A DNA stretch of 48,995 nt from an uncultured Bacteroidales bacterium (GTDB lineage Bacteria; Bacteroidota; Bacteroidia; Bacteroidales; F082), in the NCBI GenBank assembly GCA_937877465.1, contig CALFIT010000286.1:1-48995 (forward strand), in the 5' to 3' direction. Made by a program: the position numbers and the translations under genes. The notes below the pieces were generated by a model, which saw nothing but the letters and a program-made list of their open reading frames with translations, did not search any database and was not told the origin of the DNA. Shown here one piece after another: positions 9,246 through 38,300 of this stretch (positions within the stretch are counted from its first letter, which is position 1; every line of letters starts with the position of its first letter).

Positions 9246-9255
9246 GTTGTTAGAT

Positions 9256-20319: not shown

Positions 20320-23190
20320 TTAGTTCGTTATGATGACTTTTTGGGTGACGGTTATGCCTTTGTAGTTGAACACAAAGAGATAAATGCCGTCATTATAGGT
20401 GCTTATGGTGTATGGGAATGGGCGTTCGGCGATCACACTCAGTTCGAAGTCGTCGATGAGTCGGCCTATCATGTCATAGACCTTGATGGCCACTATTCCT
20501 TGCATATTGCCTAACATGAGGGTCATCTTGCCGTGATTGGGGTTGGGCATGATGGCAATATTCGGATGGCCTTCTTGCTCGTCGGTGCCGATGAAGCTGC
20601 TGATGAGCCAGAAACGACGGACGATGCCGTTGTTAGGGTCGCAGGCATTGTAGACGGTCGCACGCAGCCAAACGGTGTCTTCGACGCGGCCAGTGACGGT
20701 GACGGAACAGAATTCGCCGACGTCGCCGTAGGAGCGCAGCAGCCAGCCGGTGTTGTTCTCAAGGCTCCAAACCACCGAGTCCCATACGTTGCCTTCATTT
20801 TGGTCCCATAGAGTGAAGTCGAAGCTATTCATCTCGAATTCGGTTGGCGTAATGACCCAGTGGGGTGCCACATTATAAGGATCGGTGGAATGGATTTCTG
20901 ACGGGTTGGGTGGCACCGACAAGCTCAGTTCCAAGTGGACGATGCTGTCGCACCCCAACGAATTGGGGATGGTGTCGGTGTAAAATCCGGGCTGGCTGTA
21001 GAGTTGGCCGTGCCATTCGTAGGCCGTGCAGCCGCCGCTGACGCTGTCGGTGCCGCCTTCGACGGTGGCCGTGAGCGAGAGCCGCAGGCTGACGATGCTG
21101 TCGCAGCCGAAAGTCGAGGTGAAGACTTGGTCGTAGATGCCGTCCTCTGTGTAGGTCGTGCCGTTCCATGTGTAGGAAGCACTGCACTCGCTGTGGACGA
21201 TGGTGTCGGGGTTGATGATGCGGTCGGCCACGACGAGGTGCAGGTCGATGATGCTGTCGCAACCTTCGGGGTTAGGCTTGACGATGTGTCGGTCGTAGGT
21301 TCCAGGGTGGTCGTAGACGAAGCTGAAGCCATGTCCTTCGTAGGTCTCAGGCTCGCCAAACCAGCAGCGCAGGTCGTTGAAGGCAGCGTAGAAACCGGGC
21401 AGGGCATCGACGTAGATGAGCAGGCTGTCGCTGCATTCGGGGTGGACGGCGTTGGCGACTTCGAGACCCAAGATGGTGTCGTTGATGATGGTCACGTCGA
21501 AGCCGTGACCGGTGTAGGTGCCGCCGCTACACACCTCGGCGCCTTCGGTGAGGGTGTGCGTCCTCGTGTCGACATAATATCTCGACACGTCGATGGCCTT
21601 CCCAAACGAGTTGACGGTGAGGACGACTTCATAAATGCGCTTCTCGGCGTAGGTGTGGGTGGCGGGGTTTTGTGTGCTGGTGGCACCGTCGCCAAAGTCC
21701 CAGTCGACAGTGTAGTTGTCTTGGTTGACGTCAGCCTCAAAGGTGATGCTCTCGTCGGGGCAGTATTCGTAGGTGCCTTGTTTCGGGACCAAGGTCTCGT
21801 TGAGGGTGACGCGCGTGCTCAGGTCGATGGTCTTCGAGCCCACCAAATAGGCATAGCCTTTGGCGAAGCCGAAGCCGTAGACATGGGCGTTGAAGCCTCG
21901 CTCGCACAGCAGGTGATGCACGCCGTGCTCGATGTTTTGACGGGTGAACGAGAACTCGTCGGAGCCTTCGACGCGCTCAAACGCGCTGGCAGGCAAGAGG
22001 TTGCCGTCCAAATACACCTCGTCGACGGCGTTGTTGTTGACGATGATGTTCACATGGTGCGTGCTGATGTCGATGTTCTCGTCGTTGAAGGTGGAGAAGG
22101 TGATTTCGTCGATGCGTTGCTCGACGGGGGCAATCCAAACCACCGAAGGGTCACCGATGCTGTTGTTGCCTCTCGTGGTGTTGTAGAGGTAGACGGCTGC
22201 GGCCCCCGACGACTCGATGAGGCACGATTTCTCGGTGCTCGTCAGCTCGAAGATGTAGGATTCGTTGGCCTGCAGGCTGACCAAGAACTGCCCGTTTTTG
22301 AGGATGGTGTTGTCGTTTGACGAGGAGGTCACCTTCACCATGTCTTTCTCGCGTTCGAGCGAGTTGGTGACCACGAATTTCTTGCCCCACGATTGCAGAG
22401 GCATGGCTTGCTCGAAGATGTGGTCGAAGCTGCTGCCGTTGTTGGGAATGGCGGTCAGGTTGTTGCCGTTGTAGACGGCGATGGGCTTACCGTCGCGTGC
22501 CGTCACCCGTGAGCCGCTCAGGTCGCGCATGTCGCTGTTGCTGTTGGAACGCACTTGGTAGGTCTGTCCTTGGTTCAGCTGCACGCTGAAGGTCTGGCCC
22601 GCCGCATGTCCGTTGAGGGTTTGGGTGGCCGGCGTGATGTCGACGGTGGTGTTGTTTTCGGTGGCCACGATGAGAAAGGCGCTGGTTTGGTTTTGGGTTT
22701 GGAAAGGCTGGTTCGAGGAGATGTGCGACTGGTCGTAGGTCTGTATGATGTAGTCGTCGGCAAGGCTTTGGATGGGCAGCACATACGAGGCATCGAACGA
22801 GAGGTAGGCGATGTTGGTGCAGAAGACCGAAACGGTGTCGGAGCAACTGACCAAGATGCCTTTGTTCTGTACCTGTTCGGAGTTGCCGTCGATGTAGGCC
22901 ACGTCTTCGGGGATGTCGACGGTGGTGATGTTGTCGGCTTGCACGGTGAAGTCGGTGCTCCAGCCGGTTTGTGGGTTGGTGATGGTGCCAGTGCAGTCGG
23001 TCTTCGAGCTGATGAGCACTTGGGTGAGGAGCCAGTTGCCGTTGTTGGGGGCGCTGGAGTGGTATTTGTGTCCGTTGGTCATAAACGAAACCCAAAACTC
23101 CGTGCCTTGCGTCGAAGCGTCTTGTGCCTTGGCGGTAATTGCGGCGAGCAGCAATGCTGAAAGGATGGCAAAAGGTTTGAAAATCTTCAT
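20320..23190 (-). CDS. Type-A modular T9SS cargo protein (about 956 aa): IgGFc-binding-like N-domain, PKD, 4 two-Cys repeats, pre-CTD module, CTD
   Basis: Start moved to MKIFKPFAILSALLLAAITAKAQ (ATG at 23190). The ORF-track start at 23229 would overlap the upstream gene. Motifs: QGTEFWVSFMTN, FDHIFEQAMPLQSWGKKFVV, PKD WDFGDGATSTQNPATHTY, GCDSIV repeats, CTD MPNPNHGKMTL... Confidence 0.75.
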   Translation of the reverse strand: MKIFKPFAILSALLLAAITAKAQDASTQGTEFWVSFMTNGHKYHSSAPNNGNWLLTQVLISSKTDCTGTITNPQTGWSTDFTVQADNITTVDIPEDVAYIDGNSEQVQNKGILVSCSDTVSVFCTNIAYLSFDASYVLPIQSLADDYIIQTYDQSHISSNQPFQTQNQTSAFLIVATENNTTVDITPATQTLNGHAAGQTFSVQLNQGQTYQVRSNSNSDMRDLSGSRVTARDGKPIAVYNGNNLTAIPNNGSSFDHIFEQAMPLQSWGKKFVVTNSLEREKDMVKVTSSSNDNTILKNGQFLVSLQANESYIFELTSTEKSCLIESSGAAAVYLYNTTRGNNSIGDPSVVWIAPVEQRIDEITFSTFNDENIDISTHHVNIIVNNNAVDEVYLDGNLLPASAFERVEGSDEFSFTRQNIEHGVHHLLCERGFNAHVYGFGFAKGYAYLVGSKTIDLSTRVTLNETLVPKQGTYEYCPDESITFEADVNQDNYTVDWDFGDGATSTQNPATHTYAEKRIYEVVLTVNSFGKAIDVSRYYVDTRTHTLTEGAEVCSGGTYTGHGFDVTIINDTILGLEVANAVHPECSDSLLIYVDALPGFYAAFNDLRCWFGEPETYEGHGFSFVYDHPGTYDRHIVKPNPEGCDSIIDLHLVVADRIINPDTIVHSECSASYTWNGTTYTEDGIYDQVFTSTFGCDSIVSLRLSLTATVEGGTDSVSGGCTAYEWHGQLYSQPGFYTDTIPNSLGCDSIVHLELSLSVPPNPSEIHSTDPYNVAPHWVITPTEFEMNSFDFTLWDQNEGNVWDSVVWSLENNTGWLLRSYGDVGEFCSVTVTGRVEDTVWLRATVYNACDPNNGIVRRFWLISSFIGTDEQEGHPNIAIMPNPNHGKMTLMLGNMQGIVAIKVYDMIGRLIDDFELSVIAERPFPYTISTYNDGIYLFVFNYKGITVTQKVIITN

Positions 23191-23201
23191 GTCGGTTGAA
23201 T

Positions 23202-25613
23202 TTAATGAATTGTTATTGTTTTCTTGCACAAGGTGCCTTCCTTGCCCGTGGCCACGAAGAGGTAGATGCCGTCGGAAAGGTTTTTCATCTCGTAGGGACA
23301 GGTCAGGGAGCCTTGGCTGTTGTAAATCTGGAAATGGTCGATGATGGTGCCGCGCATGTCGTACACCTTCATGTCGATGGTGCCGGTCAGGTGCTCGAAG
23401 TGGAGGGTCATCTGGCCGTTGTTGGGGTTGGGCGCGACGCTGAACAAGGCCGGCTCTTCGTTATTTTCCTCGGTGCCGAAGAAGGAACTGACGAACCAAT
23501 AGCGGCGCACGATGCCTTCGGGATGGCACTTGTTGTAGACCTTGGCATCGAGCCAAATGGTGTCGTTGACGTGTTCAAGGACGTACATCTTACAGACGAT
23601 GCCTTTCGGATGGGCGTTTTCGTCGGGCACAAGGAGCCAACCGATGCCGGTGTTCTCGAAGGCCCAAGTGACGGAGTCCCAATGGCACGCGGTGTTGTAG
23701 TCCCAGAGGTAGAAGTCGTACGACATGATTTGGAACTCGGTGGCGGTGATGACCCAATGGGGCGCGGTGTTCATGGTATCCTTGGGATAGATCGGGGTGG
23801 GGTCGGGGGTGTATTCCAAGTCGAGGTCGAGATGCCCGATTTGGTAGCATCCCGTAGTGGGGTCGGGAAGGGTGTCGGCGTATGCACCGGCGACGAAATA
23901 GGTCTGGCCGTTAAAGTCCCAAGTGTAAGCATCGCAGTCCGTGGCCGAAACGGGTTCGATGTCTTCGAGATTGGAGGTGATGTAAAGCTTTGAGGTGATG
24001 CCCGAGGTGGAACCGCCGCCGCAGGGGTTCTCTTGTGTTCGCACCGTAAGGGTGGCTTCGTAGAAGGCATAGCTCTCGTAGGTGTGCGTGGCGGGATTGT
24101 CGGTGCTGGTGGTGCCGTCGCCAAAGTCCCAAAGCAGCTCGTAGTTGCTCAGGTTGATTTCGGCGGCAAAGGTGAGAGGCTCCAAGAAGCAGTTCATGAT
24201 GGTGTCGTTGGGCGCGACCGTTTCGCCGTTGACGATGAGGGTGGTGGAGAGGTCGGCGGTTTTCGAGCCAACCATGTAGGCATAGCCCCTTGCGTCGCCG
24301 AAGCCGTAGATGTGGGCGTTGAAGCCGTTGGGACAGCTCAAGTGGTGTACGCCGTGCGTGATTTGCGCCCTGTAATAGCTGTAGTCGCTGTTGCCCGCCA
24401 CGGCATCGAATTGTCCTGACGGCAAGAGCGCATTGTCCATATAGACCTTGTCAACGTCTTGACTCTCAACGATGATGTTCATGTAATGGTTGCTGATGTT
24501 GACGTTGCTGTGGTCGTAGTTGAAGGTCGAGAAGGTGATTTCGTCGATGCGTTGCTCGATGGGGGCAATCCACACCATCGACGGGGCGCCGTTGCCCGAA
24601 CCGTTTGAGCTGGTGTTGTAGAGGTAGACGGCGCAGCTGTGGGTGGCTTCGAGATAGCACGATTTCTCCGAACTCGAGATGCTGATGCTTCGCGACTCGT
24701 TGGCATTGAGGGTGAAAAGCACTTCGCCGTTCTTGCGGATCACGTTGCCGTCAGCCGACGAGGTGATTTTGTAGTAGTCTTGGCTTCGTCCCAACGAGGT
24801 GGTGACGACAAACTTCCTGCCCCACGAGCGCAAGGGCATGGCCTGCTCAAACACGCAGTCGCAGTCGCTCGACGCGCTGACGGGAATCAGGGTGAGGTTG
24901 TTGCCGTTGAAGATGGCGATCTTCTTGCAGTCGTGGGCGGTGACGCGCGTCCCGCTCAGGTCGCGGTTGCTGTTGCTGTCGCTTGAGCGCAGCTGGTAGG
25001 CTTGCCCCTTGTTGAGCACGATGCTGAACTTCTGATGGGCTGGCTTGCCGCCAAAGGTCTTCACCGATGGCGTGATGTCGATGGTGGTGTTGTCTTCCGT
25101 GGCCACGATGACGAAGGCGCTGGTGGGGTCGTAGGTGCTGGTGTAGTTCGACTGGTCGAAGGTCTGGATGATGTAGTCGTCGGCCAAGCCCTCAGTGGGC
25201 AACACATAGGAGGCGTCAAACGAGTAGGTGGCGATGTTGGCGCAATACACCGAAACGGTGTCGGTGGTGCTGATTTGCAGCCCTTTGTTGACCACTTGCT
25301 CGTATTCCGAGCTTTCAACATACACTTGCGTTTCCTCAAGGTCGACAGAGAAGATGTTGTTGGCTTCCACGCTGAAGCTTTGCGACCAGCCGGTGTTGGG
25401 GTTGGTGATGACGCCCGTGCAGCTCCGTTGGGCACTGACCATCAGTTGCACGCGCACCCAGCCGTTGGGGTTGTTGGGATGGTATTTGAACCCGTTCCCG
25501 ATGAAGGAAAGCCAAAACTCCTTGCCTTGCGTCGAGATTTCCTGCGCGTTTGCGGCATTGATGCCTCCGAATAGAGCCAAAGCCATGAGTGCCAATATCT
25601 TGAAGTGCTTCAT
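23202..25613 (-). CDS. Type-A modular T9SS cargo protein (803 aa): IgGFc-binding-like N-domain, PKD, 1 degenerate two-Cys repeat, pre-CTD module, CTD
   Basis: Motifs: QGKEFWLSFIGN, CDCVFEQAMPLRSWGRKFVV, WDFGDGTTSTDNPATHTY, APHWVITATEFQIMSYDFYLWD, CTD APNPNNGQMTLHFEHL... Only 11 nt to the downstream gene. Confidence 0.75.
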   Translation of the reverse strand: MKHFKILALMALALFGGINAANAQEISTQGKEFWLSFIGNGFKYHPNNPNGWVRVQLMVSAQRSCTGVITNPNTGWSQSFSVEANNIFSVDLEETQVYVESSEYEQVVNKGLQISTTDTVSVYCANIATYSFDASYVLPTEGLADDYIIQTFDQSNYTSTYDPTSAFVIVATEDNTTIDITPSVKTFGGKPAHQKFSIVLNKGQAYQLRSSDSNSNRDLSGTRVTAHDCKKIAIFNGNNLTLIPVSASSDCDCVFEQAMPLRSWGRKFVVTTSLGRSQDYYKITSSADGNVIRKNGEVLFTLNANESRSISISSSEKSCYLEATHSCAVYLYNTSSNGSGNGAPSMVWIAPIEQRIDEITFSTFNYDHSNVNISNHYMNIIVESQDVDKVYMDNALLPSGQFDAVAGNSDYSYYRAQITHGVHHLSCPNGFNAHIYGFGDARGYAYMVGSKTADLSTTLIVNGETVAPNDTIMNCFLEPLTFAAEINLSNYELLWDFGDGTTSTDNPATHTYESYAFYEATLTVRTQENPCGGGSTSGITSKLYITSNLEDIEPVSATDCDAYTWDFNGQTYFVAGAYADTLPDPTTGCYQIGHLDLDLEYTPDPTPIYPKDTMNTAPHWVITATEFQIMSYDFYLWDYNTACHWDSVTWAFENTGIGWLLVPDENAHPKGIVCKMYVLEHVNDTIWLDAKVYNKCHPEGIVRRYWFVSSFFGTEENNEEPALFSVAPNPNNGQMTLHFEHLTGTIDMKVYDMRGTIIDHFQIYNSQGSLTCPYEMKNLSDGIYLFVATGKEGTLCKKTITIH

Positions 25614-25705: not shown

Positions 25706-28348
25706 CTATGGTGCCACGACGACTTTCCGTGCCACGGTGCCGTTGCGTCCTGTGACCACGAAGAAATAGATGCCTGAGGCATCGGTGCTCATATGGTAGG
25801 TGAGGGAATGGTTATCGGTTTCGTTGTGGGTCACGAATCGGTCGAGCAGCGTGCCTCTCATGTCGTATACTTTGACTTCAACGGGACCGAAGAAGTTCTC
25901 GAAGTTGAGCGTCATCTGCCCGTTGTTGGGGTTGGGTGCCACGCCGAAGTCGGCCATGTTGTGTTCGTCCACGTCATAGAAGGAGCAAACAAACCAATAC
26001 CTGCGCTCGATGCCTTGTGGGGCACAGTCATTGTAGGCCTTGGCACTGAGCCATACGGTGTCGTCGACACGCTCAAGGACATACATCGTGCAACTCAGTC
26101 CTTTTGGGATAGAGCTTTCGTCGGGTTCAAGGATCCACTGGATGTCGGGGTTGGCAAACGCCCATGTGACGGAATCCCAATGACAGGCCGTGTTGTCGTC
26201 CCACAAATAGAATTCGTAGGAGTTGATCTGGAACTCGGTCGCGGTGACCACCCAGTGCGGAGCGGTGTTGTCGGGGTCTTTGGGGAAAATCGGGGTGGGA
26301 GTGGGGGTGTATTGCAGACTGAGGTCGAGGTGGACGATGCTGTCGCAACCCATTGGGGTGTAGAGGTTCTCGGTGTAAACGCCCGGCGTTGTGTAGGTCA
26401 TGCCTTGCCAATCGTAGCTGTCGCAAGTTGACACAACGAGCGGCTCGGTGTCGACATGGCCATACACGCGGATGTTCACGTCGACAATCTGTGTGGTGTA
26501 TCCGTCGTTGACGGTGCAGGTGAAGACGGTCGTGCCTACGGGCGGCGTGGCCACGGGGTCTTGTATGTTGGCGTTGTTCAGCAGGTTGGCGGGCGACCAG
26601 CTGTAGGTGTAGCTGCCCGTGCCGCCCAAAGGCAGGGCATGAAGGGTTGTCGTCTCGCCGTCGCAAAGGATGTATTGGTCGGCGGAGGCTGTGGCAGTCA
26701 GGTTGGAACCGGCCATGACGACGGTGACCTGCGCCGTGTTGGTGCAGCCGCCTTCAAGGTTGGTGACGGTGACGGTGTAGACCTGCGTCTCCTCCAAGTT
26801 CACGGTCTGGGTGGTGGGACTGTTGGGGTCGACGACCATGTTGGCCGGCTCCCAATGGTAAGTGCAATGGCTTGCGTTTGTCGCCTCCGCGCCGATGGTG
26901 GCGATGCCTCCAAAGAAGACGGAGGCAGGCTCAGCCGACGTGGCGATGGCGGGAATCGTGTACACCGAAACGGTTTGCGTCTTTTGGTCGGTACACATGT
27001 TGTAGGTGGTGCCCACGCTGAGCGTCACCTCATATTCGCCGGCTTGGGCGTAGGTGTGCGAGGGGTTCGTTTCGTCGCTCGTATGGCCGTCGCCAAAGTC
27101 CCATTCGATGTGCTCGATGGCTTGCCCTGAAGGGTTGGTAGTCGAGGTGTTGGTGAACTGCATGGGGCTGCCTTCGCAAACCGCGACGAAGCTGAAGTCG
27201 GCGGTGGGTTGCGCCACCACTTCAACAAAATCGGTCTCGGCGCTGCTCGTCTCGTTGCCCACGGTGATGGTGCAGGTGTAGACGCCGGCCATCTCCATCG
27301 TGCAGTTCGGGATGACGGGGTTTTGCTCCGTTGAGTTGAAGCCGTTGGGACCGCTCCAGCTGAAGGTGGCGCCAATCTGGTTTTGTGCCGTCAGGTTGAT
27401 GGTCTCGCCCACGCAATAAGGGCCGCCGCCGTTGACCAAAGGCGGCAGGATGCTACAGTCCGTGGTGCCCGTCCCCGTGTTCTCGAACGAGATGTTGCAA
27501 GGGCTGTTAGAGAAGTTGGTAATCAGCAAGATGTAGTATTCTCCGCTTTGCGCGTTGTTGATGTGGCAATTCTCGGTTGCGCTGGTGCTGTAGCTGCAAT
27601 CAACGATGTTGCTGCATGCTAACATGTCGCAGGCCGTGGACATGTCGGTAAACGGGCCCCAGCAGTCAAAGTCGATGTCGACGAGCGGGGTGCTGTACAT
27701 GTAGATGTTGAGGTTGCCGGGTTCGTCGATTCTCAGGAAATAGAAAGCGGGATTGGGGGCCGTCGAGAGGCAGTTCGAGGATTGTCCGGGCGTGCCTGAA
27801 CAGGCGTAAGGGTCGCTGCAATGCGCGTTGTAGGTGTCGCCGCAGGGCGAACCTGAATTGGTGCCTGCCGGGAAGGAATAAAGCCCCACATCGGTGCAGA
27901 AGGGTGAAGCCGTTTCGCATGTGGCGTTGTCGGAGGCGACGCCTCTCGTGAAGTCCTCGTAAAGGGTCTTGAAAACCTCGTCGTCGATGCCGTAGCGCCA
28001 TTGCACGAAAAGCTCGCCGCGCTGGTTCTTGTCCAAATAGCTGAACTCGTTGCGTTGCTCAAACAGGAGGTTGTCGAAAAAGAAATCAAAATCCGACAGC
28101 TCGTCGGGGGCGTCGTTGCCCACATACACGTCGATGGTGTTGGCCTTGTCGGGGTTCTTGTAGCAGAAATAGCCGTGGTCAAGGATGGCGTGTACCACAA
28201 AGACCCGTTCCTCGATGGTCGGGATGTGGGAAACGCTGAATTCCGACACCTTGATTTGACGCGGCTGCTGGGCAAACTGCTTCGTCGGGATGGCGCAGAG
28301 AAGCAGGACAGCCATAAAGAAAACACTATTTTTGCTTGTTGGTTTCAT
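25706..28348 (-). CDS. Type-B modular T9SS cargo protein (880 aa): N-domain, Cys-rich PPC-like domain, Ig-like, PKD, Ig-like repeats, 1 two-Cys repeat, pre-CTD module, CTD
   Basis: Motifs: signal MAVLLLCAIPTKQFAQ, PFCTDVGLYSFPAG...DIDFDCWGPF...GEYYILLITNFSN, GGPYCVGETINLTAQ, PKD WDFGDGHTSDETNPSHTY, GCDSIVHLDLSL, CTD APNPNNGQMTLNFENF... Confidence 0.75.
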   Translation of the reverse strand: MKPTSKNSVFFMAVLLLCAIPTKQFAQQPRQIKVSEFSVSHIPTIEERVFVVHAILDHGYFCYKNPDKANTIDVYVGNDAPDELSDFDFFFDNLLFEQRNEFSYLDKNQRGELFVQWRYGIDDEVFKTLYEDFTRGVASDNATCETASPFCTDVGLYSFPAGTNSGSPCGDTYNAHCSDPYACSGTPGQSSNCLSTAPNPAFYFLRIDEPGNLNIYMYSTPLVDIDFDCWGPFTDMSTACDMLACSNIVDCSYSTSATENCHINNAQSGEYYILLITNFSNSPCNISFENTGTGTTDCSILPPLVNGGGPYCVGETINLTAQNQIGATFSWSGPNGFNSTEQNPVIPNCTMEMAGVYTCTITVGNETSSAETDFVEVVAQPTADFSFVAVCEGSPMQFTNTSTTNPSGQAIEHIEWDFGDGHTSDETNPSHTYAQAGEYEVTLSVGTTYNMCTDQKTQTVSVYTIPAIATSAEPASVFFGGIATIGAEATNASHCTYHWEPANMVVDPNSPTTQTVNLEETQVYTVTVTNLEGGCTNTAQVTVVMAGSNLTATASADQYILCDGETTTLHALPLGGTGSYTYSWSPANLLNNANIQDPVATPPVGTTVFTCTVNDGYTTQIVDVNIRVYGHVDTEPLVVSTCDSYDWQGMTYTTPGVYTENLYTPMGCDSIVHLDLSLQYTPTPTPIFPKDPDNTAPHWVVTATEFQINSYEFYLWDDNTACHWDSVTWAFANPDIQWILEPDESSIPKGLSCTMYVLERVDDTVWLSAKAYNDCAPQGIERRYWFVCSFYDVDEHNMADFGVAPNPNNGQMTLNFENFFGPVEVKVYDMRGTLLDRFVTHNETDNHSLTYHMSTDASGIYFFVVTGRNGTVARKVVVAP

Positions 28349-28391: not shown

Positions 28392-31300
28392 TTATCTCTG
28401 GAGGATGACTTTCTTGGCGATGGTGCCTTCTTTGCTCGTCGCTACCAAGAAATAGATGCCGTCGGCTCTCGACGACATGTCGTAGAGCAACGAACTTGAG
28501 CTCATGTCGCTGAAAGTCTGTATGTTGTCGATGAGCGTGCCTCTCATGTCGTACACTTTGATGTCGATTTTGCCCGTCAGACGCTCGAAGTTGAGTGTCA
28601 TCAGTCCGTTGTTGGGGTTGGGCGTCACACTGAAGTCGGCCATGGTGTGCTCGTCAACATCATAGAAGGAGCAGACGAACCAATAGCGGCGGTCGATGCC
28701 TTGTGGCGCGCATTCATTGAAGGCTTTGGCGCGGAGCCAGATGGTGTCGTCGACGTGTTCAAGGACATACATCCTGCAGGTCTTGCCTTTCGGATAGGTA
28801 GTAAGGTCTGGCTCAAGCACCCAATCCAAGTCGGGATTGTCGAACGACCAGGCGATGGAGTCCCAATGGCATGAGGTGTTGTAGTCCCAAAGGTAGAATT
28901 CGTAGGACATGATCTGGAACTCGGTGGCCGTGATGACCCAGTGCGGCGCGGTGTTGGTGGGGTCGGTGGGGAAAATCGGGGTGGGGTTGGGGGTGTATTC
29001 CAAGTCGAGGTTGAGACGGAGGATGCTGTCGCAGCCCAAGGCGGTCGCAAGCACCTTCTCGTAGCTGCCCGAGGCGGTGTAAAGGGAGTCGATCCAGAAA
29101 TAGGCGTCGCATTCGTCGATGTCTAAGGTCGCGCCTTCCACTGCGCCCGAGATGAGCAGGTGGCAGTCGACGATGCTGTCGCAGCCGTCGTAGGTCGTGA
29201 ACAGCTGGCTATAGGTGCCGGTGGCCGAATAGTTCTCTCCGTTCCATTCAAACACACCGCAGGTGATGGTGTCGAAGGAGGTGTGTTGGGGCATGCCTAA
29301 GGTGAGGTGCATGGTGACGATGCTGTCGCAACCGCCCACGGAGGCATAGAGCCGCTCATAAGTGCCTGGACTGTTGTAGGTCTGGCCGTCCCAAACGTAG
29401 GTGCTGCTGCATTCGTGGTGGTCAAATTCGTAGGTGACGCGGTCGGCCACGGTGAGGTGCAGGCTGACGATGCTGTCGCAGCCGTCGACGCTTTCCAAGC
29501 TGAGCTGTCGGTCGTATTCGCCCGGGTGGTCGTATTCGAAGCTGAACCCGTTGCCGTCGTAGATGCCAGGCTCCCCGTGCCAGCAGCGGCTGTCGTTGAT
29601 GGGGATATGGTATTGCGGACGCGCCGTGATGTATAGCAACAGGCTGTCCTTGCATTCGGGATAGACGGGGTTGTCTTGCAGACGACTCAATATGGTGTCG
29701 TTGTTGATGAGAATGTTGTTGAAGCCGTGGCCGCTGTAGAGTTGGCCGGCGCAAGCCTCGTCGCTTTCGGTGACGTATTGCTGGCTGAGGTCCACAAAGA
29801 AATAGGTGGTGTCGCTCGACGAGGCGGTGCATCCGCTGGCATCGGTGGTGATGGCCAAGGCCACGCGATACACTTGCTTGTCGTGGTAGGTGTGCGTGGC
29901 GGGGTTGGCGGTGCTGGTGGCGCCGTCGCCAAAGTCCCAAAGCAGGTCGTATTGCTCGTAGTTGACCTCGGCGGCAAAAGTCATGGTGTTGTCGATGCAG
30001 TATGGGAAGCTCTCGTTGGGCTTCACTTCTATGTCGTTGATGGTCATCGTCGAACTCAAGTCGATGGCGTTGGAGCCGACGAGATAGGCATAGCCTTTGG
30101 CATTGCCGAAGCCGTACACATGGGCGTTGAAGCCGTTCTCGCAGGCGATGTGGTGTACGCCGTGGCTGATGTTCATCCTCGTGTAGCTGTAGTTGCTGTT
30201 GCCGTTGACGCGGTTGAAACTCAAGGGCGAGATGAGCTGGCCGTCGAAGTAAACATTGGCGATGTCTTCGGTCTTGACGATGATGTTGACGGAGTGGTTG
30301 GTGATGCCGATGTTGGCATGGTCGAAGGTGGAGAAGGTGACTTCGTCGATGCGCTGCTCGACGGGGGCTATCCACACCATCGAGGGGTCGCCCAAGCCGC
30401 CTCCGGGGTTCTGGTCGTAACTGGAGTTGTTGAAAAGGTAGACGGCGCTGGGTTGCGTGGCCTCAAGGAAGCACGAGCCTACGCTTTCGTTCATCGAGAA
30501 GGTGTAGGACTGGTAGGCCCGCAAGGTGGTCAGGCTGTCGCCGTTCATGGTGATGACGTTGTTGTTGGCGCTCGACGTGATCTTGATGAAGTCGCGGTTG
30601 CGGTTGAGCGAACTGGTGACCACGAAGTTCTTGCCCCACGAGCGCAGCGGCATGGCTTGCTCAAACACATGGTCGTAGCCGTTGCCCATGTTGATGGGGA
30701 CGCAGGTGAGGGTGTTGCCGTTGAAGACGGCGATGCGCTTGCAGTCGCTGGCGAGGATGTGGGTGCCGCTCAAGTCGCGTTGCGAACCCGAGCGCACCGA
30801 CCTGACGTGGTAGGTCTCGCCGGCGTTCAAGGTGATGCTGTAGGTCTCGCCGGCGACATGTCCGAGCAAGGTGGCGCAGCTCGGCGTGATGTCGATATGG
30901 GTGTCGTCTTCCGTGGCCACGATGACGAAGGCGCTGGTCTCGTTGTTGTAGACGTAGGCGTTCATGCTGCCTGCCACCGACTGGTCGTGCGACTGGATGA
31001 TGTATTCGTCGCCCAAGCTCTCAACGGGCAAGACGAATGAGGCGTCAAACGAAACGTAGGCGATGTTGGTGCAATACACCGAGATGGTGTCGTTCGCCTC
31101 CACCTTGATGGCTTTCTGCGTGATGGTTTCATAAGTGTAAGCGTCGTGATAGCCTTGTGCTTCGGGGATGTCGAGGATGGTGGTGTTGTTGGCGGTCACG
31201 TTGAATTCCCGTGTCCAACCCGTCAGTGGGTTCGAGATGGTGCCCGAGCAGTCGCGCTTGGCACTGATGAGCACTTGGTTGATGACCCAGCCGCCGCCTG

Positions 31301-31439
31301 AGGTGTGGTCGCGGAAACCGTTGTGCATGAACGAGAGCCAAAACTCCTTGCCTTGTGTCGATGTGTTTTGGGCCAACGCCGCCGGCATGGCAAGGCTGAA
31401 AAGAAGAAGCAATGATATTGTTTTTTTGATGAGATTCAT
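28392..31439 (-). CDS. Type-A modular T9SS cargo protein (1015 aa): IgGFc-binding-like N-domain, PKD, 5 two-Cys repeats, pre-CTD module, CTD
   Basis: Motifs: QGKEFWLSFMHN, YDHVFEQAMPLRSWGKNFVV, WDFGDGATSTANPATHTY, four GCDSI plus one ECKDS repeat, CTD TPNPNNGLMTLNFERL... Confidence 0.75.
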   Translation of the reverse strand: MNLIKKTISLLLLFSLAMPAALAQNTSTQGKEFWLSFMHNGFRDHTSGGGWVINQVLISAKRDCSGTISNPLTGWTREFNVTANNTTILDIPEAQGYHDAYTYETITQKAIKVEANDTISVYCTNIAYVSFDASFVLPVESLGDEYIIQSHDQSVAGSMNAYVYNNETSAFVIVATEDDTHIDITPSCATLLGHVAGETYSITLNAGETYHVRSVRSGSQRDLSGTHILASDCKRIAVFNGNTLTCVPINMGNGYDHVFEQAMPLRSWGKNFVVTSSLNRNRDFIKITSSANNNVITMNGDSLTTLRAYQSYTFSMNESVGSCFLEATQPSAVYLFNNSSYDQNPGGGLGDPSMVWIAPVEQRIDEVTFSTFDHANIGITNHSVNIIVKTEDIANVYFDGQLISPLSFNRVNGNSNYSYTRMNISHGVHHIACENGFNAHVYGFGNAKGYAYLVGSNAIDLSSTMTINDIEVKPNESFPYCIDNTMTFAAEVNYEQYDLLWDFGDGATSTANPATHTYHDKQVYRVALAITTDASGCTASSSDTTYFFVDLSQQYVTESDEACAGQLYSGHGFNNILINNDTILSRLQDNPVYPECKDSLLLYITARPQYHIPINDSRCWHGEPGIYDGNGFSFEYDHPGEYDRQLSLESVDGCDSIVSLHLTVADRVTYEFDHHECSSTYVWDGQTYNSPGTYERLYASVGGCDSIVTMHLTLGMPQHTSFDTITCGVFEWNGENYSATGTYSQLFTTYDGCDSIVDCHLLISGAVEGATLDIDECDAYFWIDSLYTASGSYEKVLATALGCDSILRLNLDLEYTPNPTPIFPTDPTNTAPHWVITATEFQIMSYEFYLWDYNTSCHWDSIAWSFDNPDLDWVLEPDLTTYPKGKTCRMYVLEHVDDTIWLRAKAFNECAPQGIDRRYWFVCSFYDVDEHTMADFSVTPNPNNGLMTLNFERLTGKIDIKVYDMRGTLIDNIQTFSDMSSSSLLYDMSSRADGIYFLVATSKEGTIAKKVILQR

Positions 31440-31503: not shown

Positions 31504-34500
31504 TTAATGCTGTATAACAACTTTCTTGGCTACGGTGCCTTCCTTGCTTGTCGCAATGAAGAAATAGATGCCATCCGTCCGGCTCCTCATGTCATATTGA
31601 TAGGTGCCAGGACCGGCGTTATTGTAAGTCTGGAATTTGTCAATCAGCGTACCGCGCATGTCGTATACCCTGATGTCAATCTTGCCAGAGAGTTGCTCGA
31701 AGTTGAGCGTCATCTGTCCGTTGTTGGGATTGGGGATCACGTCGAAGTCTTTGGGCTCGGCTTGATGCTCCTCGACGCCGATGAACGAACTGATGAGCCA
31801 ATACTTCCGCTCGATGCCATCGCTGGGTGAGCAGCGGTTGAAGGCACGGGCATTAAGCCAAACGGTGTCGTTAACCCAACTGAGCACATACAACCTGCAG
31901 CAAGCGCCATTCGTTCCAAAAGGTTCAAGCACCCAGTCCAAGTTGGGATTGTCGAACGACCACGAGATGGAGTCCCAATGGCAGTTCGGGTTCTGGTCCC
32001 AAAGATTGAAGTCATAGGTGTTGATTTGGAACTCGGTGGCTGTGACGACCCAGTGTGAAGTCGTGTAATCCATCGGGTAAATGGGCGTGGGGTTGGGCGT
32101 GTATTCAAACTGCACGTTCATTGTCACGATGCTGTCACAGTCCGAGTTGTTCTTGTAGGTCCTGTGGTAGACGCCCGACATATCGTAAACCAAGCCTTCG
32201 TGGTCGGTCGAGATAATCTCGTGCCCTTGGGGGTCCCAGAAGTATTCGTTGCAGTTCTCTTCGTCGCTGACGGTGAAAGTATATTCGTCGTGGTCGTTGA
32301 TGGTGAGATGCAGTGTGGCTTCGCTGTCGCAGCCGTAGGCGTTGATGTAATGATGCGTGTAGACGGTGCTTTCCGTGAAGGTCATGTCGACGTTGTAGGT
32401 GTCGTTTTTCCAACGGTAGGCATCGCAACTTGTGACAACCACCTCGTCGTCGAAACTCGGTCTGAGTTCGAGATTGAGAATCAGCGTACTGTCGCATGAG
32501 TTGGCATATTGCAGCGTGTCGAAGTAGATGCCGGTCTCATAATAGGTGTGTCCGTTCGAGGGCCATGTGTATTCGGTGGCGCAAAGCGACACAACATAGG
32601 TCTTGGAGTTGTATTCCGCCTCTTCAACGGTCAGGTAAACGATGCTGTCGCAGCCGGCTTGCGTTTGGAACACAAGCTCGTTGGGGATGGGGCTGGGTTG
32701 GAAGTAGGTGTCCAACGGAGCAAAGTAGTAGCCTGGGCCTCCTTCGCAAGTCGATTCGGTCAGATACACTTCATAGCTTGGATCTTGGATGAGGTTCAGC
32801 CTGATGATGCTGTCGCAGCCGTTGACGGTTTCGAGGGTGTGGTAATAGACACCCGAACTCGTGATAGGCTCTCCGAAGAAGCTGTAGGTGTCGCCTTGGC
32901 AGAAGTGGTCTGAGATGGAGGTCTCGTAGGTCTCGTGATGGGTGAGGTGCAGATGGATGGTGCTGTCGCAACCGTGTTGCGAAACAACGATATGGTCGTA
33001 GTCGCCTTCCTCGGAGAGGATCTCGCCGAAGAAGTTATAGGTGTCGTCGGGGCAGATGCTCACGTTGATGTCGGACTCGACGTGGGGATAGACGTAGACG
33101 CTGACGCTGACGTCTTGCGCCGAGAGGCCGTCGCTGACATGGCAGGTGTAGGTGGTGAGCCCAAGGGGCGGCGTAGCCACCGGGTCTTGGATGTTGGCGT
33201 TGTTGAGGGTGTTGGCTGGTGTCCAGGCAAAGGTGTAGTTGCCCGTGCCGCCCGAAGGCTCGGCATGGAGCATCGTGGATTCGCCTTCGCAAAGCTCGCT
33301 GTTATCGGCAGAGGCCGTGGCCATCATGTTGGAGCCTTCGATGACTACGGTGACACGACCCGAACCCGAACAGCCGCCTTGGGGGTTGGTGACGGTGCAA
33401 GTGAATTGCACGTTCTCATAAAGCGGGACGGTTTGAGTGGTCTGGCTGTTGGGATTGACGACCTTGTTGGCGGGCTCCCAACGGAAGTTGAAGGTGCCTT
33501 GCGTGCCCGCAGTGGCGGTGAGGGTGGTGGTGCCACCATAGATGACCGTGCTGGGGTTGGCCGACACGGTGGGTGTCGGCAGCGCGTTGACAGGTACCGT
33601 GCGGGTTGTCACGTCGGAGCACATGTTGTTGGCCGTCTGCACGGTGAGGGTCACTTGATAGCTACCCGCTTGCGCATAGGTGTGGCTTACGGTCTGGCCC
33701 GTGCCGGTCTGTCCGTCGCCGAAGTTCCACTGATAACTCGAGATTTGGCCTGTCGAAGTGCTGGTGAACTGAGTGGCGGTGCCTTGACAAACGGTGGTGA
33801 AGTTGAAGTTGGCGGTCGGCTGGGCAACGATGGTCACCGGAAGGGTCTTCTCGCTGGTGCAATGCCCTCCGCACGAAACGGTGAGCGTCACTTGGTAGGT
33901 GCCTGCGTTGGTATAGGTGTGCGAAACGCTGGCGCCCGAGCCGGTCTGTCCGTCGCCGAAGTTCCATTGGTAGCTCTGGATGGGCTGCCCCGTCGGGTTG
34001 GTGGTCGAGGTGCTGTTGAATTGCACGGCGTTGCCCGCGCAGGCGGCGGTGTAGGTGAAGTCGGCGGTGGGTTGGGGATAAATGACGACTTCCGTCGTGG
34101 CGCTGTTGGTCTGGCTACCCACAGCGATGGTGCAGGTGTAGGTGCCGGCCATGTTCATCGTGCAGTTCGGACGGGTCGGGTTCTGCTGGTTCGAACTGAA
34201 GCCGGCAGGGCCTGTCCAGCTGTAGCTTGCGCCCGACTGGCCGTTGGCGGTCAGGCTGATGGTCTCGCCCACGCAATAGGGGCCGCCGTTGTCGACCAAG
34301 GGAGGCAGGATGCCGCAGTCGGTGACGCCCGTGCCGCCCACCTTACTGAAGTTGATGTTGCAAGCTTGGTTCGAATAGTTGGTGATGACCAAGATGTAAT
34401 ACTCGCCTGTCTGCGAAGTGGCTGGAATCATGCAGTGTTCGGTGGCGGCGGCAGAGTAGCTGCAACTCACCACCTTGTCGGAGGTCAGTCCGTTGGGGCA

Positions 34501-35175
34501 AGGCGTCGTTTCGGGAATGGTGGGGTCGACGCTGTAAGGCCCCCAGCAGCAGAAGTCGATGTCGTGGCTCGGTGTGCTGTACATGTAGATGTCGATGCTG
34601 CCTGCGGGACTGCCGATTCTCATGTAATACCAAGCGGGGTTGGGCTGCGTGTAAAGGCAGCTGTAGTAAGGTCCCGATTCGCCCGAGCCGGCATTCACGC
34701 CCGCCGGAAACTCATACATTCCGTTGTCGGTGCAGAAAGGGTCGGCAAGGACGCAGAGATTGTTGTCACGCGACCTCGCGTAGATGTCCATCATCAACGA
34801 CATGGTGAAGTCGTTGGGCAGCGCGGCCTTGAGGGCAGCCGCGGCTTCTGCGGCTTGCTCCTTGTCCATCATCGAAAACGCAGCGGCGTTTTGCGTGCGA
34901 AATTCGTTGTAGGCCTCTTCCAAGTTGAGCCCTTCAAAAGCCTCGTTGGCACTGACGATGAAGATGCCGTCGCGCTCGCTGGTGATGACGTCGAAGCGGC
35001 TGTCGTTGGCCAAGTTGTAGAGCGTGAAGACGCGCTCGTCGAAGTTGGCGATGTCAGTGATGTTGAACTCGATGGTTGGCTGGCCGTGGACGGTTTGGAC
35101 TGGCTGAGCGAACTGTCTCAAAGGCATGGCCAACAGCAACAGGGTTGCACAAATGATTCTCGTAAAGCTTTTCAT
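31504..35175 (-). CDS. Type-B modular T9SS cargo protein (1223 aa): N-domain, Cys-rich PPC-like domain, Ig-like, 2 PKD, Ig-like repeats, 6 two-Cys repeats, pre-CTD module, CTD
   Basis: Motifs: PFCTDNGMYEFPAG...DIDFCCWGPY...GEYYILVITNYSN, GGPYCVGETISLTAN, two PKD units (WNFGDGQTGSGASVSHTY, WNFGDGQTGTGQTVSHTY), six CDS[IT] repeats, CTD IPNPNNGQMTLNFEQL... Confidence 0.75.
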   Translation of the reverse strand: MKSFTRIICATLLLLAMPLRQFAQPVQTVHGQPTIEFNITDIANFDERVFTLYNLANDSRFDVITSERDGIFIVSANEAFEGLNLEEAYNEFRTQNAAAFSMMDKEQAAEAAAALKAALPNDFTMSLMMDIYARSRDNNLCVLADPFCTDNGMYEFPAGVNAGSGESGPYYSCLYTQPNPAWYYMRIGSPAGSIDIYMYSTPSHDIDFCCWGPYSVDPTIPETTPCPNGLTSDKVVSCSYSAAATEHCMIPATSQTGEYYILVITNYSNQACNINFSKVGGTGVTDCGILPPLVDNGGPYCVGETISLTANGQSGASYSWTGPAGFSSNQQNPTRPNCTMNMAGTYTCTIAVGSQTNSATTEVVIYPQPTADFTYTAACAGNAVQFNSTSTTNPTGQPIQSYQWNFGDGQTGSGASVSHTYTNAGTYQVTLTVSCGGHCTSEKTLPVTIVAQPTANFNFTTVCQGTATQFTSTSTGQISSYQWNFGDGQTGTGQTVSHTYAQAGSYQVTLTVQTANNMCSDVTTRTVPVNALPTPTVSANPSTVIYGGTTTLTATAGTQGTFNFRWEPANKVVNPNSQTTQTVPLYENVQFTCTVTNPQGGCSGSGRVTVVIEGSNMMATASADNSELCEGESTMLHAEPSGGTGNYTFAWTPANTLNNANIQDPVATPPLGLTTYTCHVSDGLSAQDVSVSVYVYPHVESDINVSICPDDTYNFFGEILSEEGDYDHIVVSQHGCDSTIHLHLTHHETYETSISDHFCQGDTYSFFGEPITSSGVYYHTLETVNGCDSIIRLNLIQDPSYEVYLTESTCEGGPGYYFAPLDTYFQPSPIPNELVFQTQAGCDSIVYLTVEEAEYNSKTYVVSLCATEYTWPSNGHTYYETGIYFDTLQYANSCDSTLILNLELRPSFDDEVVVTSCDAYRWKNDTYNVDMTFTESTVYTHHYINAYGCDSEATLHLTINDHDEYTFTVSDEENCNEYFWDPQGHEIISTDHEGLVYDMSGVYHRTYKNNSDCDSIVTMNVQFEYTPNPTPIYPMDYTTSHWVVTATEFQINTYDFNLWDQNPNCHWDSISWSFDNPNLDWVLEPFGTNGACCRLYVLSWVNDTVWLNARAFNRCSPSDGIERKYWLISSFIGVEEHQAEPKDFDVIPNPNNGQMTLNFEQLSGKIDIRVYDMRGTLIDKFQTYNNAGPGTYQYDMRSRTDGIYFFIATSKEGTVAKKVVIQH

Positions 35176-35353: not shown

Positions 35354-38300
35354 TTATTGCGTGACCATGACGCGCTTGACGGCCACGCCTTCTGCCGTGC
35401 GGATGCGGATCGTGTACATGCCCGCTCCGAAGGGCTTCAGGTTCAAGATGTAGGTGTCGTTGCCCGTCTCCACATCGTCGACCACCTGTCCGAGCACATT
35501 GCTCACCGTGAGGCGTTGCATGTTTTCGGCTTCGATGGTGACCATGCCTTGGGTCGGGTTGGGATAGAGCTTGGCCTTGGCACCTAACTCGTCGACGTCG
35601 GTCGAGTTCTTCACCGCGACGGACAGGGTGCTGCCGCTTTCGCCGCACTCGTTTTCGGCTTCAGCCTTCAGCGTGGCTTGGCCCTTGAAGGTGTCGCTCC
35701 AATACACTGTGGCATGGCTGCCTTCGGCAACGATGTCGCCCGCGCCTTCAGGCTCGATGCTCCAACGGTATTCGGCCCCAAAGCCTTCGCCCTCAATGGA
35801 ATATTCGCTTGAGGGGAAGTAGAGTACGTCGACGGCATCGTCACCCACGATGGCTTCAACGACGGGCGGCCTGTTGATGCTCAGGTGCAGGGTCACGATG
35901 CTGTCGCAGCCCGCAGCGTTGGCGTAGACCTGCTCGAAGTCGCCACTCTCGGTATAGACGGTGCCGTCCCATTCGTAGCTTTCGCAAGCGTCGACTTGGA
36001 ATGCCACTTGGTTGGATGTGTTGACGGTGAGGTGCATGACAACGGTCGAGTCGCAACCGTGGATGGAAGTGAAGATATTTTCGTAAACTCCTGATTCGTA
36101 ATAGGTTGTACCGTTCCATTCAAAGGCGTCGCAAGCCGTCGCTTCGGTCTCGATGTTGTAGGACTCTATTAATACAAGGTGCATGGTGACGATGCTGTCG
36201 CAGCCATAAACGCTTTGGAACTGCTGTTCGTAGTCGCCTTCCTCGCTGTATTCGATGCCGTTCCATGTGTAGGAGCCGCACGAGGCTACCTCAAACTCAA
36301 CATTGTGCTTCCTGTGGATGAAGAGCGTGAACATGGCTGTGTCGTCGCCGCAACTCGAGAATGCATTGAGATAGAAGGTGACGAACCCGTTTTCAATGTC
36401 TTGTGGGCCAGGCGTGTAGGTGGTGACGGGGGATGCTTCGTCGCCCATCTGTCCGTCGCCGACGAACTCCCAATAGAGGTCCTCGGCTTCGTTGACGGTG
36501 GCATGAAGCTCGTAGGTCTCGCCTTCGCAGATGTCTGCCGATTCGTCCATTTCGATGCTTGCCGGGTCGTGCAGGATGCCCACCATGCTGTCGCTGAGGG
36601 TCTCGCCGGCGGCATTGGTGACGGTGAGGGTTAAGGTCACCGTCTTGCGCTCACGGTCTTGCGGGCCTGGCTCGTAGGTGGTGACCAAGGCGTTGGCGTC
36701 GCTGAAAACGCCGTCACCGTCGCTAGTCCATTCCACGGTCTCATAACCTAAGGCAGTGCCTTCCAATTCAAAGTTCCCGAAGACGCAGGTCTCTTGGTTG
36801 AGTCCGGCATCGCAGGCGAAGGTGATGTGGCGCACGGGGAAGAGGATCTCGTCGATCCAGACGTGGTCGGCGCCGCTGCTGCCTGATGCGTCTTTCTCGT
36901 AAATCCATGAGAAGGTGTGCTCGCCTTGGCTGACGGCGAAGGTCATTTCGCGCCAGTTGAGCGTTTCGCTCCATGTTTGTTGCACTTGACCGTCGATGCA
37001 GAATTTCAGGTGGTCGTTGGCCTCGCAGTCGGTTTTCCTGTAGAAGCGGATCTCGTCCATGGGGTTCTCCACGTTGAAATGGAGGGATAGCGTCGAGCTT
37101 TCGTTGTGCCCGATGGTGCCCGATTGCAGGCAATAGGCTCCGGCGTAGGGTTCGATGCTGCTGACGACCCAAGGATGGTCGGGGTCGTTCTCCCATTCAA
37201 AGTCGTCCATGCCGTTTTCGAAGTTGGCGAGTTCGAGTCCGACGCGATGGTGGAAGGTCTGGAGGGTGTTGTAGGCGCCTGCCACGACTTGCAGGTTCAT
37301 CACGGCGTCTTCGCCACGCGGCATGTCGGGGGCGACGCTTACGGTGTAGGTCACGGTGACGGTTTGCGCCGGCGACACGGTGGCGGTGCTTACGCTCGGG
37401 TTGCTGATGCTGAGGTAAGGAATCATGGTGCCTAAGGTGGCGACGACGTTGTTGGCTTCGGCCCCGCCGATGTTTTGGTAGATGAAACTGATTTCGGCAG
37501 TCTCGCCCGGGTCGAGGCGACCGTTGCCGTGGCCTCGGTTGCTGATGTTGTCGTCGATTATCATCTCTTCTTCAATCTTGAAGTTGGGCGCGTAGGCGGT
37601 GAAGTTGAAGCCTGCGTTCCATGTGTGTGTGCCGTCGGTCATCAGCAAGCTGAAGCGAATGAGGGTGCCGTCGGGCACGTTGTCGGCCACGCGGATGCCA
37701 AACACCTCGTCGAGGGTGATGCTTTGGTTGGGACTCAAGGCGGGGATGGTAGTGGTGGCGTCGGTGATGCTGACCAAGTCTTGCATGACGGTGGAGAGGG
37801 TGGCGGTGGCAGCGGTTGAAGCCAAGTCGCCGGTATTCTTGACGGTGAGGTTGAAGCGGGCTTGTTCGCCGTATTCAAGCTGGCCGTTGCCGTTGGCGTC
37901 GCTGAGGGTCACTTCGGTCATGACGAGTTCGGGCTCGCTGATGACGTTGATGCTGCCTACATAACGCAGGCGGTCTTGCTTGGTGGCCACGATGGTGATG
38001 GTGCCGGTGGGTTGTGCCGCAAAGTTGACGCTTTGGGTGCTGCCCGTGGCGGTGGCCACGGCGAGGATGTTGTTGTCGCGTGTCAGGGCGATGACGGCAC
38101 CTTGCGGGGCACTCACGTTGATGGTCGTCGTGGAGGTCGTGATTTCAGCGGGATGGCTCACGTTCATTGCGGTGGGCACCTGCGTGAAAAGGGTCAGGAA
38201 GGCGTCGCAGTGGGCGGTGAACATCTTGTGGGTGATGGCTTTGCTCTCCGGGTTGTAGGGCCACGAGCTTTGTTGCAGGAAGTATTTGCCGGCCACGTTG

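Follow-up and report, generated by a model that had tools for sequence, protein, structure and literature searches.

Rod-forming surface repeats are familiar from Gram-positive bacteria, the E-G5 repeats of SasG being an example, and we know of no Gram-positive repeat of this kind in which disulfides join one repeat to another. GhpA of Aureispira is secreted by a type IX secretion system (T9SS) and forms a 240-nm rod in which disulfides join nearby domains; its chain of 5,898 amino acids (aa) has 52 immunoglobulin-like (Ig-like) repeats in the stem, an example disulfide spans 152 residues, and glycan-like densities occur in every cryo-electron microscopy (cryoEM) map of the stem (bioRxiv 10.1101/2024.01.29.577165). 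T9SS cargo of type A is attached to the surface via its C-terminal end once the C-terminal domain (CTD) has been removed (PMC5445135). The present analysis concerns a small tandem repeat with two cysteines, found in T9SS cargo proteins of an uncultured Bacteroidales bacterium (GenBank assembly GCA_937877465.1, contig CALFIT010000286.1); the window is the whole analysed stretch of this contig, 48,995 nucleotides (nt) long. It holds a block of minus-strand genes, mostly encoding T9SS cargo, with three C25 peptidases and five paralogous proteins bearing arrays of the repeat. The first cysteine of each unit is here called Cys1 and the second, in a GCDS motif, Cys2. We propose, with a probability of roughly 0.65, that the units form a rod-like stalk of all-beta modules, stitched together by interleaved inter-module disulfides and possibly glycosylated.

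Motif and cysteine-spacing scans, together with a six-frame hidden Markov model (HMM) scan of the window, found 20 units in six minus-strand genes and no others (Table 1). Both the total and its division among the proteins (4, 1, 1, 5, 6 and 3) agree with a preliminary description made by hand count, as do the coordinates; the span 29001-29753, from which that description started, covers aa 563-813 in the 1015-aa protein (p1015; other proteins are likewise called by their length). The six-frame model was trained on the window units themselves, and for an independent test a profile was made from 3,078 units, all of them taken from unrelated proteins. This profile recovered 18 of the 20 at i-E<1e-3, while shuffled translations gave one weak match. 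The first units of p969 and p1015, which scored only 4.8 and 1.6 bits against it and read C-x-G-x-x-Y-x-G-H-G-F and E-C-[SK]-D-S-L at the motifs, are divergent and only probable units. Cys1 and Cys2 are present in all 20 units at a spacing of 26-38 residues, and insertions fall within the stretch that they delimit. The recurring plus-strand DNA motif reported earlier is also real: GATGCTGTCGCARCC occurs in 11 exact copies, or 14 with up to two mismatches, compared with 0.34 matches on average in shuffles. All copies lie on the plus strand at GCDSI codons, and the motif is the reverse complement of the G-C-D-S-I codons, nothing more.

The architecture of the unit was approached from covariation and from structure prediction. 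From 226 retrieved proteins (150 large and 76 short) 5,539 units were extracted, and mean-field direct-coupling analysis was applied to 2,657 distinct double units (effective number of sequences, Meff, 2,044), whose unit halves act as replicates and agree with each other. The couplings outline an antiparallel beta4/beta5 hairpin (30-38, 29-39, 27-41 and 25-43), beta2/beta3 and beta3/beta4 hairpins (15-18/20, 14-19 and 20-28), a beta1/beta2 turn at Cys1 (6-13), and a beta1 strand running parallel to beta5 of its own unit at a constant offset of ~38 (2-40, 5-43, 7-45, 8-46 and 7-47). An AlphaFold2 model of the three units of p1587 (aa 1272-1420, 49-row alignment) has a mean predicted local distance difference test score (pLDDT) of 94.9, with no block below 90, linkers included, and assigns five strands to each unit, at residues 2-9, 12-14, 17-19, 23-30 and 36-46. 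The unit is accordingly modelled as an all-beta module of ~49 residues, a five-strand up-and-down meander closed by the parallel pairing of beta1 and beta5.

Couplings tie the conserved aromatics to Leu42 and Leu44 (15-42, 20-42, 20-44 and 26-42), which suggests that the conserved Tyr and Trp form the core of the unit. This placement disfavours a reading of the units as ligand-binding repeats, of lectin or adhesin type, in which the aromatics of Y-x-W-x-G-x-x-Y-x-x-x-G-x-Y would serve as the binding surface and the array would provide multivalency. Such a role would suit the aromatic-rich consensus, the IgGFc_binding-like and PKD domains found as neighbours, and the fact that member proteins are labelled adhesin-like or gliding-associated by their sources. 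It is nevertheless rather unlikely, since the aromatics would lie in a hydrophobic core and not on an exposed surface, the surface positions are variable and mostly Thr, Ser, Asn and Asp, the unit stands behind very different heads, a protease included, and unit number varies freely.

Cys1 occupies column 9, level with the end of beta5 (residue 47), and Cys2 column 36, at the start of the same strand. Given the parallel beta1/beta5 pairing and its offset of ~38, the two cysteines of one unit would lie at opposite ends, eleven residues or ~35 Å apart. The only notable off-diagonal couplings between a unit (A) and the next (B) are A9-B36, which ranks fourth overall, and A47-B34; from these, the top of a unit is predicted to touch the bottom of the following one.

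Patterns of cysteine loss were examined in contingency tables for adjacent units, taken from raw sequence positions. Cys1 of a unit (i) and Cys2 of the next (i+1) are both present in 4,414 cases and both lost in 126, with only 10 and 20 single losses (odds ratio ~2,800, p ~1e-210). These co-losses are spread over 40 proteins and represent repeated events, since the replacement residues differ from protein to protein (R/V, N/A, Y/A, R/R, E/Y). Within a unit the association is negative, with two co-losses, 174 losses of Cys2 only and 416 of Cys1 only. Where the last unit abuts the CTD (62 proteins), the canonical Cys1 is gone in 53 and Cys2 is kept; 40 of these 53 units are cysteine-free at that place and 13 have a local C...C pair in the beta2/beta3 hairpin. 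The latter form a terminal-unit variant, D-S-C-Y-x-W-N-G-x-x-Y-C-x-S-G-D-Y, in which the local hairpin pair stands in place of the canonical Cys1 (13 of 62; e.g. P0009, P0022, P0040, P0077 and P0112). In the giant proteins, what look like the terminal units of an array mostly have degenerate units beside them, with a cysteine at ~23 residues.

The paired loss of Cys1(i) and Cys2(i+1), together with CTD-abutting units that lack Cys1 and have Cys2, makes a disulfide between Cys1(i) and Cys2(i+1), joining neighbouring units, the most likely arrangement; the loss patterns are the opposite of those predicted by a bond within the unit or between Cys2(i) and Cys1(i+1). The first of these alternatives, a self-contained mini-domain in which Cys1 and Cys2 of the same unit are bonded, is how the preliminary description understood the repeat. 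The two-cysteine module it recognised is genuine, and the structure prediction it called for returned a confident fold. Its own-disulfide closure is highly improbable, although every window unit has exactly one cysteine per position, the single-unit proteins p803 and p880 carry both, for which an intra-unit bond would be the simplest pairing, and a modest intra-unit 9-36 coupling is seen (score 1.75). Against it stand the distance at which the couplings place the two cysteines of a unit, the rarity of their joint loss, and the selective disappearance of Cys1 beside the CTD.

The other pairing, Cys2(i) with Cys1(i+1), was suggested by a regular spacing. In the window these cysteines are 23 residues apart at most junctions by hand count (24 at one, 25 at two and 26 at one), and the distance is 23 in 77% of 5,264 cases outside. 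This constancy is explained by an invariant beta5-linker-beta1 segment. The pairing was rejected: the association between the two cysteines is weak (odds ratio 2.5), no beta5(i)-beta1(i+1) coupling is found, and terminal units lose Cys1, not Cys2.

In the Cys1(i)-Cys2(i+1) arrangement, tandem units would stack end to end as a rod, with an expected rise of about 4 nm per unit, judging by strand lengths. Cys1, in the turn between beta1 and beta2, would mark the 'top' of unit i and be bonded to Cys2, which in the GCDS motif would mark the 'bottom' of unit i+1. Each junction would be covalently stitched, and each bond would span two other half-cystines, so that the bonds interleave along the chain.

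At the array ends, it is plausible that cysteines of the flanking domains are the partners. Between the last unit and the CTD, all five array proteins have a cap domain, marked by APHWV[IV]TATEFQI, LWD, CHWDS, DTVWL and RRYWF, which is conserved in rumen Bacteroidales relatives and has no Pfam or NCBIfam match. A cysteine of this domain, in C-H-W-D-S-[IV], lies at +80 to +90 from the last Cys1 in four of the five, the distance from Cys1(i) to Cys2(i+1) in tandem units being typically ~75-80; on the other side, a cysteine of the upstream domain lies at -57 to -59 from the first Cys2 (-50 in the protease) in five of the six unit-bearing proteins. The first cap-domain cysteine may accept the last Cys1. 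Co-loss lends this no support, four proteins in relatives keeping their last Cys1 without the cap cysteine. An AlphaFold2 model of the last unit and cap domain of p880, from an alignment of five paralogues, was poor (pLDDT 44.8) and was not used for fold search.

The residues that follow Cys2 raise the question of glycosylation. The O-glycosylation motif of Bacteroidota is (D)(S/T)(A/I/L/V/M/T) (PMC8550257). Of the 20 window units, 18 have a tripeptide after Cys2 that fits this sequon, as do 2,656 of the 3,078 outside units (86%; profile columns 37-39). Among the 421 outside units without it at these columns, 237 have a sequon of the D-T-L type three residues downstream (columns 40-42). Both positions are filled in only one of 2,657 units and 94% of outside units have exactly one, and this either/or choice of position accounts for the strongest coupling of the whole analysis, 37-40. 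Of 175 units without Cys2, 168 retain the sequon. A recognition motif explains an intact shift by three residues more easily than packing does. The odds are about even that the sequon is glycosylated, in which case each unit would bear one glycan right after Cys2.

No described family covers the unit in the resources searched. Pfam-A and NCBIfam have no model over it, either in whole proteins or in repeat segments alone, which at E<=10 gave sub-threshold noise only; PKD models match nothing but residues that precede the arrays, and none of the units. In five large family members no genuine Pfam family lies over the repeats, the matches being spurious, repeat-summed and with 0 significant stretches. 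Unit and three-unit profiles had no significant match among PDB sequences, with none at E<0.09 and RemZ best at E 0.095. A full-text literature search for motif strings (GCDSIVTL and similar) returned no paper, and a general search of the T9SS and cysteine-repeat literature found nothing bearing on the unit. The earlier statement that no family could be named thus holds for Pfam-A, NCBIfam and PDB sequences, where no match to a named repeat was found.

The unit is, for all that, widespread. A profile of the 20 units, searched against 1.84 billion cluster representatives (clusters at 50% identity), matched 26,945 of them at E<=1e-3, 16,793 at E<=1e-10 and 6,675 at E<=1e-30. The top matches range from 1,000 to 7,061 aa in length and contain 17-83 matched stretches, and the 76 short proteins, retrieved with a three-unit segment, are mostly unnamed metagenome fragments, many with Por_Secre_tail. 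Their sources label members as 'hypothetical', 'T9SS type A sorting domain-containing', 'gliding motility-associated-like', 'VCBS repeat-containing' or, in IMG, 'trimeric autotransporter adhesin'. Named taxa among them are Paludibacteraceae, Crocinitomicaceae and Bacteroidales, and some members lie on 7-8 Mb genomes beside CHU_C proteins. In metagenome-assembled genomes (MAGs) of rumen Bacteroidales the window array is kept as tandem paralogues with 1-6 units each. Co-occurrence with T9SS CTDs, raised in the preliminary description, was found both at the locus, where all six unit-bearing proteins have a CTD (PF18962 / TIGR04183) above the curated cut-off in Pfam and NCBIfam, and beyond it, where a CTD of the window type ends 64 of 150 large and 32 of 76 short proteins and many others have a type-B-like tail. 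Judged by these matches, the unit is a very common module of secreted surface proteins of Bacteroidota, mostly T9SS cargo, and is undescribed in the resources searched.

This breadth bears on another early proposal, that sharing of the module links the protease to the array proteins. Identity between the C25 protease units and those of the array proteins is ~50%, and unrelated metagenome proteins are equally similar. Since the protease units are no closer to the array than outside matches and tens of thousands of clusters contain the module, the link is weak, and the common unit would reflect a general cargo module with no specific tie between the two gene sets. Recent exchange between protease and array genes was rejected, their units being at most 58% identical to each other and no closer than outside matches.

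Arrays always lie between N-terminal functional domains (C25 protease, IgGFc_binding-like, PKD) and the CTD. Unit number is 1-6 among the paralogues and reaches 83 elsewhere, and the units combine a conserved core with a variable surface. A rigid stalk of tunable length is the most economical explanation of this position, copy-number variation and conservation, and a stalk is the most likely function: arrays of 1-6 units would act as rigid spacers of adjustable length, holding the working domains off the outer membrane.

Several points weigh against this interpretation as a whole. The stalk function is deduced from domain order, and the cysteine pairing from covariation and loss patterns; many of the co-losses occur in giant proteins with internal duplications and do not count as independent events, though 40 different proteins are involved. 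All 20 window units keep both cysteines, including those of single-unit proteins and at array ends, which leaves orphan cysteines in need of partners in flanking domains, and in p969 the orphans persist although neither candidate flanking cysteine is there. As to the glycan, Ser38 has the spacing of an inward-facing residue of beta5 and is coupled to residues 30 and 32; this periodicity and the coupling to the core-side residue 30 speak for a structural role and against a glycan site. Finally, the relatives are rumen anaerobes of a strongly reducing habitat, where exposed disulfides may not persist.

A related alternative holds that the junction cysteines are in contact and yet not disulfide-bonded in vivo, being free thiols or a metal site in such a habitat. 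The closest relatives are indeed MAGs of rumen Bacteroidales, and co-loss reports a pairwise dependence, not its chemistry. The family is, however, equally common in Bacteroidota of aerobic marine and soil type (a TARA ocean match, Crocinitomicaceae, the 7-8 Mb genomes), T9SS cargo crosses the periplasm and disulfides are documented in T9SS components (PMC12635249, PMC12365241), and two cysteines alone make a poor metal site. We regard it as quite improbable.

Beyond the locus, the analysis points, with odds that we put somewhat below even, to a new and very large family in which chain-stitch disulfides and one O-glycan per junction constitute a general principle, overlooked by annotation, of rigid length-tunable stalks and giant filaments across Bacteroidota. 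In tens of thousands of clusters, drawn from Bacteroidota of gut, rumen, sea and soil and with proteins of 5,000-7,000 residues among them, the unit makes up the bulk of the chain; annotation goes no further than 'hypothetical' or 'T9SS sorting domain-containing', and a curated model would annotate a large part of the dark sequence in T9SS cargo. Inter-module disulfides, if confirmed, would account for the straightness of such long single chains. The Cys1(i)-to-Cys2(i+1) rule, if true, is simple and open to mass spectrometry; it also points to a regularly spaced candidate glycosylation site, and true array ends become predictable from the lack of Cys1 in terminal units. At this locus, the units would be stalks that bear proteases and adhesin-like heads, and not the sign of a special functional link between genes.

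All large genes of the window are on the minus strand, and Pfam and NCBIfam scans show further cargo genes adjoining the array and C25 genes. The array proteins combine an IgGFc_binding-like or unassigned N-terminal domain with PKD/Ig domains and Por_Secre_tail (Table 1). The unassigned region, common to p880 and p1223, is a Cys-rich stretch of ~300 aa (e.g. DPFCTD...YSFPAG...PNPA[FW]Y) that has no Pfam or NCBIfam match and occupies the position of the IgGFc_binding-like domain in the other three. The 969-aa open reading frame (ORF) begins at a GTG at 23229, and its first 28 nt (23202-23229) are shared with the end of the 803-aa gene; a start at the ATG 13 codons downstream, which yields 956 aa and is followed by a signal-peptide-like sequence, is more likely. 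Domain matches to PF01364 (150 bits) and PF08126 (72.5 bits) make p1587 a predicted C25 (gingipain-like) peptidase. Two-cysteine units are present only in this middle one of the three C25 paralogues; p1612 and p1587 have in common modules of ~80 aa (ICEG...YTPGPQD...) and a similar final domain before the CTD.

Directly downstream of the array genes lie an OMP_b-brl_2 beta-barrel gene and a gene for a 283-aa lipoprotein-like protein, the latter without family match and with the highest sequon density of the window (17.7 per 1,000 aa); the two proteins could be anchoring partners. Throughout the minus-strand cargo block (14001-44000) the plus-strand GC skew is strongly positive (0.10-0.23), and GC content is 54-61%, compared with 44-53% in the flanks.

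Table 1. Features of the window (positions in nt of the window; aa positions refer to the encoded protein).
Feature	Position	Strand	Basis	Layout or remark
5 tandem units, 1015-aa protein, aa 555-814	28998..29777	(-)	motif/spacing scans, six-frame HMM; outside HMM 4/5	
Individual units, 1015-aa protein	29619-29777, 29445-29609, 29295-29435, 29148-29285, 28998-29135	(-)		first listed divergent
6 tandem units, 1223-aa protein, aa 700-1024	32104..33078	(-)	motif/spacing scans, six-frame HMM, outside HMM	
Individual units, 1223-aa protein	32935-33078, 32782-32925, 32617-32772, 32461-32607, 32296-32451, 32104-32277	(-)		
4 tandem units, 969-aa ORF (956 aa from ATG)	20917..21555	(-)	motif/spacing scans, six-frame HMM, outside HMM	
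Individual units, 969-aa ORF	21400-21555, 21226-21390, 21070-21210, 20917-21054	(-)		first listed divergent
Single unit, 803-aa protein, aa 552-600	23814..23960	(-)	motif/spacing and HMM scans	GCYQ instead of GCDS
Single unit, 880-aa protein, aa 634-679	26312..26449	(-)	motif/spacing and HMM scans	
3 tandem units, C25 peptidase p1587, aa 1272-1415	35873..36304	(-)	motif/spacing and HMM scans	
Individual units, p1587	36167-36304, 36020-36157, 35873-36010	(-)		
Cap domain (~125 aa), p1015	28623..28997	(-)	alignment, conservation in relatives	between last unit and CTD
Cap-domain equivalents, other array proteins	20554-20916, 23433-23813, 25937-26311, 31738-32103	(-)		
1015-aa T9SS cargo gene	28392..31439	(-)	Pfam, NCBIfam scans	signal peptide, IgGFc_binding-like, PKD, 5 units, cap domain, Por_Secre_tail
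1223-aa T9SS cargo gene	31504..35175	(-)	Pfam, NCBIfam scans	unassigned Cys-rich N-terminal region, PKD x2-3, Ig-like, 6 units, cap domain, CTD
1587-aa C25 peptidase gene (p1587)	35354..40117	(-)	PF01364 1.4e-43, PF08126, PF03785, PF18962	propeptide, catalytic domain, Ig-like, further domains, 3 units, small domain, CTD
969/956-aa T9SS cargo gene	20320..23229	(-)	Pfam, NCBIfam scans	IgGFc_binding-like, PKD, 4 units, cap domain, CTD
803-aa T9SS cargo gene	23202..25613	(-)	Pfam, NCBIfam scans	IgGFc_binding-like, PKD, 1 unit, cap domain, CTD
880-aa T9SS cargo gene	25706..28348	(-)	Pfam, NCBIfam scans	unassigned N-terminal region, PKD/Ig, 1 unit, cap domain, CTD
Three C25 (gingipain-family) peptidase paralogues	13419-18257, 35354-40117, 40142-43630	(-)		T9SS tails
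Two adjacent CotH-kinase-domain proteins	7359-9245, 9247-11115	(+)		Fn3_assoc/CHB_HEX_C_1 and T9SS tails
OMP_b-brl_2 outer-membrane beta-barrel protein; 283-aa lipoprotein-like protein	18435-19313; 19338-20189	(-)		

Among known systems, a weak sequence match is to RemZ of Flavobacterium johnsoniae, presumably itself a T9SS substrate, in PDB entry 8gl8, which we take to be a T9SS translocon complex. The three-unit profile matched chain D at residues ~503-618, a match that is not significant, and the region resembles units of the Cys1-less, GCPS type. PKD and bacterial Ig-like domains (PF18911, PF00801) are, like the units, all-beta extracellular modules, serve as spacers in surface proteins and stand immediately upstream of the unit arrays in the same proteins; the unit differs in being about half their size, in having five strands instead of seven, in its parallel beta1/beta5 closure and in its two invariant cysteines. 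Tandems of Rib domains (PDB 6s5y, 8yke) gave weaker Foldseek matches to the three-unit model (E ~0.01-0.04). The Gram-positive Rib rods are presumed to do what the unit arrays would do, holding a head out from the surface on a varying number of small beta domains, whereas Gram-positive rod repeats belong to another phylum, use another anchoring system and have no sequence similarity to the unit.

The best Foldseek matches of the three-unit model are the stem and neck of GhpA (PDB 9flp, 9flw), at E 1.7e-5 and 9.7e-5 with probability 1.0, but with weak template modelling (TM) scores of 0.43-0.44, a root-mean-square deviation of ~8 Å and alignments much longer than the query. Unit and three-unit profiles gave no match to the 9flp and 9flw sequences at E<=10, and with a weak structural match and no sequence support GhpA is to be taken as an analogue, not as a family assignment. 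Its repeats are apparently larger than the ~49-aa unit, and it works as a heptamer, whereas nothing suggests oligomerisation of the unit proteins. Like them, it is T9SS cargo in which small beta modules, dozens in tandem, make up a straight rod, which for the unit proteins is a prediction. The unit belongs to a familiar class, the tandem beta-domain stalks of surface proteins, within which its proposed disulfide pattern is unusual.

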